This document shows, one piece after another, positions 8,185-10,491 of a stretch of 64,000 nucleotides of DNA. Source of the stretch: Vulcanimicrobiota bacterium (lineage in GTDB: Bacteria > Vulcanimicrobiota > SpSt-956 > JAKJGF01); assembly GCA_036746235.1 (NCBI GenBank), contig DAIOEN010000005.1:7879-71878 (forward strand). The letters run 5' to 3'. Made by a program: the position numbers and the translations under genes. The notes under the pieces were generated by a model. The model had not been told where the DNA came from, searched no databases, and worked only from the letters and a program-made list of their open reading frames with translations. Position 1 is the stretch's first letter. The number at the start of each line of letters is the position of its first letter.

Positions 8185-10491
8185 ATGAAACATACAGTAA
8201 TGTCAATACAGGGAAAGTTAAAATCTACAATAAATTTTACTCGAAGTTTTCTAAAAAAACCGGTGGAAATAAATCCTGAGGGAAGAGATTTTTTTATTTC
8301 TTCCGGTAAAGATGAAAAGGAATGGACAGTTCTTATTTACGGAGAAGGTAAAAATAGACTTGCCTATTCCACCGATGCAGCTCTGAATAAAATGGAGAAA
8401 GTCGGTTCAAACAAAGATGTAAATATTGTAGTACAGGCTACAGTCAGTCCGAGCTGGAAAGAAAGATTTTCTCCTGAGATGGGAAGAGTAAATACAAGGC
8501 GTTATTATATTACTAAAGATAATAATGAAGAAAAGATAACTTCTCCTATAGTGGAAGACCTGGGAGAACAAGTTCCCCTGAATGCTGATACTCTGTCAGA
8601 TTTTCTATCCTGGGGTATGAAGGAGTTTCCTGCGAAACATTACATGGTAGTAATAAAGAAACATGGCAGTGGATTTATGAAAACCCGCCATGAGCCACTT
8701 TCTGCAGCAGAACTTGGTGAAGCACTGGAAAAAACAGAGGCGAAAACAGGAAAAACTGTGGATATTCTCTCTTTTGACAGTTGTTCTATGTCACAGATGG
8801 AAGTAGGATATGAAATAAAAGAACATGTGAGAGTTATGGCCGGTTCTCAGGAGGATATATATGCTATTGACTATCCTTATGAAAGAATACTTTCCGGACT
8901 CCAGGAAAAAGCCGGTGTAATAACGGCGAGAGAAGCTGGAGAACTCATTGTTAAATCCCATGAAATAGACGTTCCCAGAGGCATTCAGACAGCAATAGAT
9001 CTGGAAAAATTGAAAAACGTAGGAATAGCCACAAAGGAGCTTGTAGAAACATTAATTAAAAAAGGAATAAAAAGAGAAATAATTTATACCGATATGCTGA
9101 AAACCTCATCTATGGAGCCTGTTGAAAGTAGAAGACTTGCTTTTGATTTCAGAGATGAAAGAGGTTTTCTTAAAAATCTTATGGAAGATAAACATATTAC
9201 ATCAGAAGAAATTAAAGAAAAAGCAAAAATACTGGATGATATGCTTTCAGATGCAGTAATAGCTCATTATATATGGGATACAAAGAAAAAAGTAAAAGAC
9301 GGAAGGGGACTGAACCTTTATATTCCATGGAAAAATCCTTCTAAAGATATAAGAAAAAAATACGACAGTCTTAAATTTGAAAAAGACAGTACCTGGATGA
9401 AACTTATAGATTATATTTTTGAAGATAAACATGTAGCAGAAGATTTTGGAAATGGAATAAAATCATCAGATGAAAAAAATAAACCTGAAAAATTATCTCT
9501 TTCACAGAAATTGGGAAAAGAAATCATACATAATTATAAAAAATATGTTGCCCCCTATCATATGTCTGTCTGCAGGCACATTCCCAGTTGTTCCCAGTAC
9601 GGAAGGGAAGCAATAGAAAAACACGGACTTGTTCAGGGCGGTAAAATGGCTTTTATGCGCATACTGGGCTGTAATTCTGAAGCAACTGCAAAATATGATC
9701 CTGTTCCTGACTTACCACCGGAAGGGGAAGAGGTAAAATGTAATATAGAATATGGAGAAGTACCACCTGATTTCAAAGATAACAACCTTCCTGAAATACT
9801 CGTAACTCCGCCGAAAACAGAAGAAAAATCTCCTTTAAAGAAATATATTGAAAATCATATTATTTCAGCAGGTGCATTAACAGGAAAAATCCTGGGAGGA
9901 ATTACAGGTGCACTTGTTTCATTACCTGTTGGCACTGCTATGGGAGCTATACTTGGAACAAAATCGGGAAGAGATGAAATCACTGATTTCAACAGAAAAC
10001 TCCTCTCAAAATACCACAGAGATTCTGTAAAAGATTTTGCAAATATTGAAAGAGTTGTGGGGACACCGGGTTATAATGTTCATGAAAAAGTAAAAGAACT
10101 TACGGGATCTTTTACAATTACAGAAGATACTCTGAAGAATTCCGGTATAGAAATGTTAAATAGTACATCTGCCGGAACACTTATAAATAAAAGATTTTCA
10201 GAAAAAAAATTAAGAGAAGAACTTTCCGGTCTGAAATTTAACGAAGGAGATATAGATGTAATTATAAATAATGCATCTTACAGTTATAATGAAATCCTTG
10301 CAAAAGTTCTGGGAGGTTCTGCCGGAGCAATAACAGGAACACTTATAGGTGCTCTTGGCGGATCTGCAGTAGGATATCGCTGGGGTTCAAAATTTTCCGG
10401 TTTATTTGCACAGAATTATTTGAAAGAAAAATTTGGAGAACTGGCTACAAAAATAGAAACAGAGCAGATACTTAAATATTATTATGAATAA
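8185..10491 (+). CDS. clostripain-like (C11) cysteine peptidase fused to a YidD-like domain and C-terminal glycine-zipper membrane segments
   Basis: RBS aaggag 7 nt before ATG 8185. C11 motifs WTVLIYGEG.., KKHGSGF (His), [16 protein letters not shown] (Cys). YidD motif [35 protein letters not shown]..YDPVP (nt ~9514-9711). GxxxG-rich hydrophobic stretches near the C-terminus. Confidence 0.8.
   Translation: [768 protein letters not shown]

Follow-up and report, generated by a model that had tools for sequence, protein, structure and literature searches.

Our analysis concerns a 64,000-nucleotide stretch of a Vulcanimicrobiota bacterium (contig DAIOEN010000005.1, positions 7,879 to 71,878; hereafter the window) and one gene on its forward strand, which joins a C11 (clostripain-like) protease to a YidD-like domain and two glycine-zipper segments. 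With moderate confidence, we favor the reading that this gene encodes a membrane-tethered cysteine endopeptidase of the clostripain family (C11, clan CD) without a signal peptide, that the substrate of its relatives is a precursor protein built of tandem repeats, and that the copy in the window is an orphan. The C-terminal ~330 amino acids (aa) are, by sequence, a YidD domain that is divergent yet clearly recognizable, with two long glycine-zipper helices after it. Such a tail would keep the catalytic part of the protein next to the cell membrane on its cytoplasmic side, acting as an association or anchoring platform rather than serving the canonical, YidC-linked route of insertion.

The protein is read from a single uninterrupted open reading frame (ORF), which runs on the + strand from GTG 8038 or ATG 8185 through 10491 (Table 1). 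ATG 8185 is the real start, because an AAGGAG lies 7 nt upstream and the homologous proteins have their N-termini at this point of the alignment; the protein is thus 768 aa long. The three-part architecture, proposed in an earlier note on this DNA, stands. The Pfam models for C11 and YidD both score significantly, above their cut-offs, and the zipper glycines are invariant, with the Pfam zipper score below threshold. The motifs quoted in that note are all present, namely KKHGSGF (His160), the Cys200 motif and the YidD stretch ending in YDPVP (aa 463-507). The same fusion recurs in other genomes: more than 17 homologues with 33-69% identity keep it, the 16 aligned at full length have all three parts, 12 species-representative genomes carry it, and the homologues all come from Vulcanimicrobiota/Eremiobacterota-type metagenome-assembled genomes (MAGs). 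In addition, an identical 768-aa protein is called on 11 public contigs from several samples and metagenome assemblies. The earlier note knew of no described protease-YidD fusion, and we also found none in the literature searched on YidD, PF01809, and C11 with ribosomally synthesized and post-translationally modified peptides (RiPPs), which describes neither the fusion nor the repeat protein.

The N-terminal ~410 aa are, as judged by their conserved residues, a catalytically complete C11 domain, and the protein belongs to family C11 by every testable criterion. Pfam Peptidase_C11 (PF03415) matches aa 78-410 (E 1.5e-21, 77.8 bits against a cut-off of 25.8). The clostripain equivalog TIGR02806 reaches merely 23.9 bits against a cut-off of 550, so the protein is not clostripain itself. 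His160 (KKHGxGF), Asp198, and Cys200 (FDSCSM) are invariant over 17 aligned sequences, and the catalytic motifs line up with HG[ST]GW and FD[A]C of 6mzo and 6n9j in an alignment with PDB sequences. The full-length AlphaFold2 model (mean predicted local distance difference test score, pLDDT, 78.7) agrees with this assignment. In Foldseek it matches clostripain 9cip (E 9.7e-15; template modeling score, TM, by target 0.64) and the C11 structures 6nag, 6mzo, and 6n9j (E 1e-13 to 1e-14), with TM by target of 0.70-0.75 for the Bacteroides/Parabacteroides C11 structures and 0.75 for 6mzo; the sequence identity to solved structures is only 15-18%. In PmC11, the dyad is His133/Cys179, and Arg/Lys specificity is due to the conserved S1 residue Asp177, located two positions ahead of the Cys, with Asp229 as its equivalent in clostripain (PMC4850288). 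Because Asp198 sits at this Cys-2 position, the S1 determinant in characterized C11 enzymes, the domain is probably Arg/Lys-specific at P1. No aligned family member has a signal peptide or an N-terminal hydrophobic segment.

YidD is near-universal in bacteria. The YidD-like domain of the fusion begins with a predicted amphipathic helix and continues as C463..P467-S-C469-S-Q-Y-G-R-E-A...H-G...K487...R492...C496...D505-P-V-P. It matches Pfam YidD (PF01809) over aa 446-507 (E 1.4e-18, 66.8 bits against a cut-off of 27) and the NCBIfam YidD equivalog TIGR00278 (58.8 bits against 40). C463, P467, C469, S470, R474, E475, A476, G481, K487, R492, C496, and D505 are invariant in the fusion family. The domain aligns over its full length with ten canonical stand-alone YidDs from unrelated genomes, sharing with them Y-[Q/K]..S-P, C...P-[S/T]-C-S-Q-Y-x-R-E-A...H-G, K/R...R...C, and D-P-V-P. 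Unlike the canonical N-terminal helix, which is of the hydrophobic LLIALIRVYQ type, that of the fused domain (aa 439-454, predicted) is polar and basic, with a mean hydrophobicity of about -0.1 and a hydrophobic moment of 0.47, and the C[H/N]PW.PGG motif of canonical YidDs is absent. Neither rnpA nor yidC lies near the fusion gene in the window or in any related locus. A Vulcanimicrobiota MAG (L082), in turn, has the canonical rpmH-rnpA-yidD-yidC-jag-trmE cluster with a stand-alone yidD. Because the fused domain never stands beside rnpA or yidC and this canonical cluster exists, it is, in its sequence relationships, an extra and divergent YidD paralogue and not the cell's own YidD. In other words, a YidD-family domain is present, but the context features of YidD proper (a stand-alone gene, a yidC operon) fail. 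We found no YidD structure in the PDB.

The sole hydrophobic segments of the protein are two moderately hydrophobic, Gly-rich stretches at about aa 558-595 and 703-735. The glycine-zipper models of Pfam (PF13488, PF05433, PF13441) remain under threshold, the best being PF13488 with 19.7 bits against 25; despite this, the GxxxG-type periodicity and the invariant glycines are clear in the family alignment. Modeled separately, the tail forms three long helices (pLDDT 80.6), for which Foldseek gives no structural analogue in the PDB (best E 0.86). An exhaustive HMMER search with the tail (aa 436-768) against 1.84 billion representative proteins returns ~40 representatives with YidD and the zipper tail, and plain ~90-aa YidDs begin only at E about 1e-12. 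The module occurs in three settings among these representatives: at the C-terminus of C11 proteases of 525-710 aa; alone, in proteins of 283 (P0054), 242 (P0061), and 305 aa (P0071); and ahead of two PLD/HKD domains, at the N-terminus of P0058, P0062, P0065 (~670 aa), and P0076, of which P0076 (1852 aa) also carries a radical-SAM domain. A further stand-alone copy of 235 aa, YidD followed by two zippers, lies on a 193-kb Candidatus Xenobia contig (L039). The PLD fusions share their MAG labels with the C11 fusions (Eremiobacteraeota, 'Firmicutes', and 'Armatimonadetes' MAGs), and both are auto-named 'membrane protein insertion efficiency factor YidD' in public records. YidD and the double-zipper tail are, from this distribution of sequences, an evolutionarily portable unit that stands alone, on C11 and on PLD-type enzymes within one lineage. 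The tail is most simply seen as a membrane-localizing platform, because the module is common to a protease and a lipid-acting enzyme family.

The related loci suggest a substrate. When ORFs were clustered over 18 related loci, to which four further loci were added, a gene for a tandem-repeat protein was found directly adjoining the fusion gene in 16 of 20 fusion loci, upstream in most of them and downstream in one lineage (L003/L004/L007). The repeat protein has a leader of 25-50 aa (MKINS..., MQIGTGF..., MSTINA...), after which come 3-17 units, each about 18 aa (17-20 aa) long. The consensus of 89 units is S-x-[G/K]-D-F-P-P-x-C-L-F-G-G-x-T-x-[V/K]-x-S, in which each unit has a single anchoring Cys. 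Variants include KDTDPCACAMGEDN, KDCDPFVCLMGSET, and GDAMEWNYCFGGGNEK, and no family in Pfam or NCBIfam matches the repeat protein. Most loci with a repeat gene also hold a second C11 paralogue of 440-830 aa, whose longer forms (about 540 aa upward) have no YidD domain and two C-terminal hydrophobic segments of their own. At the S1 position there is a systematic difference between these proteases: the fusion has F-D-[S/A]-C and the partner [M/L]-N-[T/S]-C, with Asn for Asp. Beyond the partner and the repeat gene, the clustered loci show no conserved neighbors. In a reverse search, 241 million metagenome records were scanned for the repeat motif, written as degenerate DNA; this gives five stretches, and all four that have enough flank adjoin this C11 family. 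One of the loci found in this way (L095) holds the fusion protein closest to that of the window, with 66-70% identity. The linkage between fusion and repeat gene is old, because the loci span 33-66% G+C.

In these relatives, the physiological substrate would be the product of the neighboring repeat gene. The fusion protease, with its Asp at S1 and a basic P1, and the partner C11 would together cleave this precursor into short peptides that contain Cys. The Asn at S1 of the partner predicts a different P1 preference, and the partner has a C-terminal hydrophobic hairpin of its own. With low confidence, we further propose that the fusion, the Asn-S1 partner, and the DFPPxCLFGGxT repeat protein form an unrecognized peptide-maturation system of Vulcanimicrobiota/Eremiobacterota, in which the two proteases, both anchored in the membrane, would excise many copies of a short Cys-peptide from a single multi-core precursor at the inner face of the membrane. 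In such a system, the YidD/glycine-zipper module may serve as a membrane platform, a substrate-docking site, or an export site. The proteases might also cyclize the peptide through its Cys in the manner of AgrB, which is conceivable because clan-CD enzymes form acyl-enzyme intermediates. The copy in the window would be an intact and presumably active orphan paralogue. Because neither a partner nor a repeat gene lies within the 64 kb, it may process in trans a precursor whose gene lies elsewhere, or have a different substrate close to the membrane. The same metagenome sample holds a complete cassette (P0002, L005) at a coverage similar to that of the window contig, and a tetranucleotide comparison does not separate the low-GC relatives, the window contig and L005 included. 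MAG_50 (JADMJV01) offers a parallel to the window in having an orphan second copy. Its two fusion paralogues (L012 and L016) are 38% and 30% identical to the window protein, and only one of them is flanked by a repeat gene and a partner.

Several observations weigh against the explanation that we favor. By tblastn, the 64-kb window contains neither a repeat gene nor a partner C11. Where the relatives have the tandem-repeat gene, the window has an ORF of 69 aa, which possesses a ribosome-binding site and may be a degenerate, leader-only remnant of that gene. A leader hidden Markov model (HMM) ranks this ORF first of 684 ATG-ORFs, but its similarity to the repeat proteins is not significant (phmmer E>1; leader HMMs E=2.1 and 0.44, the latter being the value of the top-ranked match). 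Lys/Arg, moreover, is not found in every inter-unit linker of the repeat proteins, and in L011 it occurs in alternate units only; a simple cut after K between every unit is therefore an incomplete account. Two divergent members of the fusion family (L017 5743-7620 and L018 5815-7557) lack the catalytic His and Cys, having LEGFQS and LLGEGG where FDSCSM stands in the others. With scaffold and tail kept, these pseudo-proteases suggest that the scaffold can persist without catalysis. The zippers may be peripheral or oligomerizing rather than transmembrane, because the Kyte-Doolittle maximum is merely 1.6 and the AlphaFold2 helices, at 46 residues, are longer than the bilayer is thick. Finally, we infer the protease activity, the membrane association, and the topology alike.

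Another explanation follows the earlier note, which had suggested self-assisted membrane insertion or targeting of the protease. Here the YidD domain would act in cis as an insertion-efficiency factor, through YidC/Sec, for its own zippers or for those of the protease complex. The domain keeps every hallmark residue of the YidD family, and the glycine-zipper segments always follow it, whether alone, on C11 or on PLD proteins, as would fit a unit of YidD and its client. However, the helix at its N-terminus has a far more polar and basic character than in canonical YidD, the C[HN]PW.PGG motif is missing, the gene is linked to neither yidC nor rnpA, and the phylum retains a canonical yidD. In addition, the partner C11 has its hydrophobic C-terminal segments without any YidD domain, which argues that such tails insert without YidD. 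The mechanism of YidD itself is barely known (PMC8082313). We consider insertion in cis unlikely. Of the earlier suggestion, membrane targeting is plausible, and it is the self-assisted insertion that the portability of the module, the missing yidC/rnpA linkage, and the canonical yidD speak against.

In a related scenario, YidD would bring the protease to Sec/YidC sites as a translocon-docked quality-control enzyme, to cleave nascent membrane proteins that are stalled or wrongly inserted. PMC8082313 lists E. coli YidD among the factors close to SecYEG/YidC, on the strength of in vitro cross-linking, and the protease is predicted to face the cytoplasm. The conserved neighbors, however, are a repeat-peptide gene and a second protease rather than proteostasis genes, the distribution is limited to one lineage, and the presence of the module on PLD-type lipid enzymes favors generic membrane localization. 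Such a role seems quite unlikely.

Glycine zippers are found in pore-forming proteins, which invites a third alternative. The protein would be a membrane-active toxin or abortive-infection effector, in which activation of the protease releases or activates the zipper helices (or the old 'haemolytic domain') to permeabilize a membrane, much as caspase-like proteases activate pore formers. Clan CD proteases act in bacterial defense, SAVED-CHAT is among the distant fold matches, and a Tn3-type transposase fragment lies 4 kb upstream. On the other hand, the CHAT match is marginal (E 1e-2), PADLOC gives no match for the protein or seven neighbors, and no locus shows a defense-island context, the conserved partners being the repeat peptide and the second protease. 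We regard this alternative as very unlikely. An artefact, whether a pseudogene in decay or a false merger of two genes during sequencing or assembly, can be dismissed: a stop or frameshift between the domains, which the earlier note named as grounds for refutation, is excluded, as is a chimeric assembly, by the 11 identical and independent contig copies and by the homologue alignment and species-representative genomes, in which the fusion is conserved at 33-69% identity across 33-66% G+C with invariant catalytic and YidD residues, next to a good ribosome-binding site and a terminator.

Table 1. Features of the fusion gene and its surroundings in the window, and repeat-protein genes of related loci (coordinates of each locus).
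Feature	Position	Strand	Basis or remark
Whole gene, C11 protease / YidD / double glycine-zipper protein, 768 aa	8185..10491 (incl. stop codon)	+	ORF, profiles, homologues, public contigs
Shine-Dalgarno AAGGAG	8172..8177	+	spacer 7 nt to ATG 8185
Clostripain-family (C11, clan CD) catalytic domain and C-terminal subdomain, aa 45-412	8317..9420	+	Pfam, PDB alignment, Foldseek, invariant residues
His160 codon	8662-8664	+	predicted catalytic
S1 Asp198 codon	8776-8778	+	Cys-2 position
Cys200 codon	8782-8784	+	predicted catalytic
Flexible linker, aa 413-436	9421..9492	+	pLDDT <50
YidD-like domain, aa 437-508	9493..9708	+	Pfam, TIGR00278, alignments with homologues and canonical YidDs
Glycine-zipper hydrophobic segment 1, aa 558-595	9856..9969	+	within predicted helix 550-595; G571, G583, G587 invariant
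Inter-zipper region, aa 596-702	9970..10290	+	helix 612-640 and small inserted domain expanded only in closest relatives
Glycine-zipper segment 2, aa 703-749	10291..10431	+	G714, G718, G722, G730, G734 invariant; sub-threshold Gly-zipper_Omp
Palindromic hairpin between A/T runs	10518..10550	.	terminator-like on both strands; starts 27 nt past stop codon
69-aa ORF (MKINQTTNSSFVNTG...)	7724..7933	+	own ribosome-binding site; also in public gene calls
Repeat-protein gene, L001	9273-9890		beside fusion gene
Repeat-protein gene, L005	6404-7381		beside fusion gene
Repeat-protein gene, L087	2210-2716		beside fusion gene
Repeat-protein gene, L008	2554-3036		beside fusion gene
Repeat-protein gene, L009	2722-3087		beside fusion gene
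Repeat-protein gene, L011	5186-5773		beside fusion gene
Repeat-protein gene, L012	5523-5891		beside fusion gene
Repeat-protein gene, L014	5190-5786		beside fusion gene
Repeat-protein gene, L015	5375-5797		beside fusion gene
Repeat-protein gene, L095	1722-2489	-	beside fusion gene
Repeat-protein gene, L003	12695-13021		beside fusion gene

The surroundings of the gene were also inspected. The 1.8 kb upstream (6358-8184) holds no convincing ORF save that of 69 aa, and contains a 20-nt perfect-type hairpin at 7069-7112; Rfam gives no matches over the whole window. Downstream, on the opposite strand, lie two family-less ORFs of 175 aa (12246-12773, -) and 266-269 aa (11424-12233, -). The former starts with MQIKNITSSQVLNTG and contains 'KASADKDPSEIPMPLF', and its C-terminal half is long and rich in glycine zippers; the similarity of this Gly-rich neighbor to the tail is compositional only. 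The latter starts with MKINMTYEN and ranks second with the leader HMM, not significantly. Leader homology is claimed neither for these two ORFs nor for the 69-aa one, their position and rank being suggestive only, without significance. Further upstream, a 346-aa ORF (2902-3942, -) has only the N-terminal DUF4158 of Tn3-family transposases, which indicates a truncated transposase. Its presence hints that the region around the locus was once rearranged, which might be why the cassette partners are missing.

Elsewhere in the window, a 2031-aa hybrid sensor kinase (36691-42786, +) combines dCache, multiple PAS, GAF, HisKA, HATPase, two receiver domains, and Hpt in a segment of 41-44% G+C, compared with about 32% in the remaining window. 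A GH65 glycoside phosphorylase (760 aa) followed by a HAD-type, beta-phosphoglucomutase-like hydrolase (26584-29561, -) makes a typical maltose/trehalose phosphorylase pair. The genes at 49280-55082 (-) form an oligopeptide ABC transporter operon of the Opp/Dpp type, with an SBP_bac_5 binding protein, two permeases, and two ATPases.

A conserved, signal-less, and apparently membrane-tethered C11 subfamily widens what this family does. The occurrence of YidD as a portable module on a protease and on PLD-type enzymes leads to the testable idea that the YidD fold serves for docking at the membrane surface. The cassette is compact, with three genes only. A gene for repeated Cys-peptides together with two proteases that differ in their S1 residues resembles an undescribed multi-core peptide system, for a pheromone or a natural product, in a barely cultivated phylum. 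If the peptide-maturation proposal were true, a YidD domain not encoded in the yidC operon would for the first time have a functional context. At present, the public annotation 'YidD' hides these enzymes of 570-835 aa.

Among known systems, clostripain and PmC11 (MEROPS C11; 9cip, 3uws, 6n9j, 6mzo) share with the window protein the Pfam family, the caspase-like fold with its C-terminal subdomain, the His/Cys dyad, and the Asp at Cys-2, as well as a Lys/Arg-containing loop past the catalytic His, where PmC11 and clostripain autoprocess. To our knowledge, all characterized C11 proteases are secreted enzymes; they are soluble and about 350-530 aa long, whereas the window protein has no signal peptide and a YidD/glycine-zipper tail of 330 aa. 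E. coli YidD (PF01809/TIGR00278) aligns with the domain over its full length, with the YidD motif set. Unlike this stand-alone protein of ~70-100 aa in rnpA-yidD-yidC, the domain is internal to a 768-aa protein and always precedes two glycine-zipper helices.

For the proposed maturation, AgrB/AgrD with MroQ of Firmicutes offers an analogy only. In that system a membrane-bound cysteine endopeptidase processes, on the cytoplasmic side, a small ribosomal precursor with a Cys in its core a few residues ahead of the cleavage site. AgrD maturation needs two discrete proteolytic steps by two membrane proteases (PMC10196373; PMC9388083). AgrB, however, is a polytopic membrane protein outside clan CD with neither sequence nor fold relationship to the fusion, the precursor of the relatives is multi-core (3-17 units), unlike AgrD, and no agrC/agrA-type genes are conserved beside the cassette. 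Thiolactone formation on the repeat peptides, by this analogy, would be pure speculation. In multi-core RiPPs (cyanobactin PatE with PatA/PatG; fungal Kex2-processed repeat precursors), the proteases are subtilisin-like rather than C11, and no modifying enzyme is conserved in the cassette. Nevertheless, the cassette shares with them a leader, tandem near-identical cores, and conserved linkers, and its precursor gene adjoins two proteases. The window itself lacks this RiPP-like arrangement, which 16 of the 20 related loci show, as does every informative locus of the reverse search.

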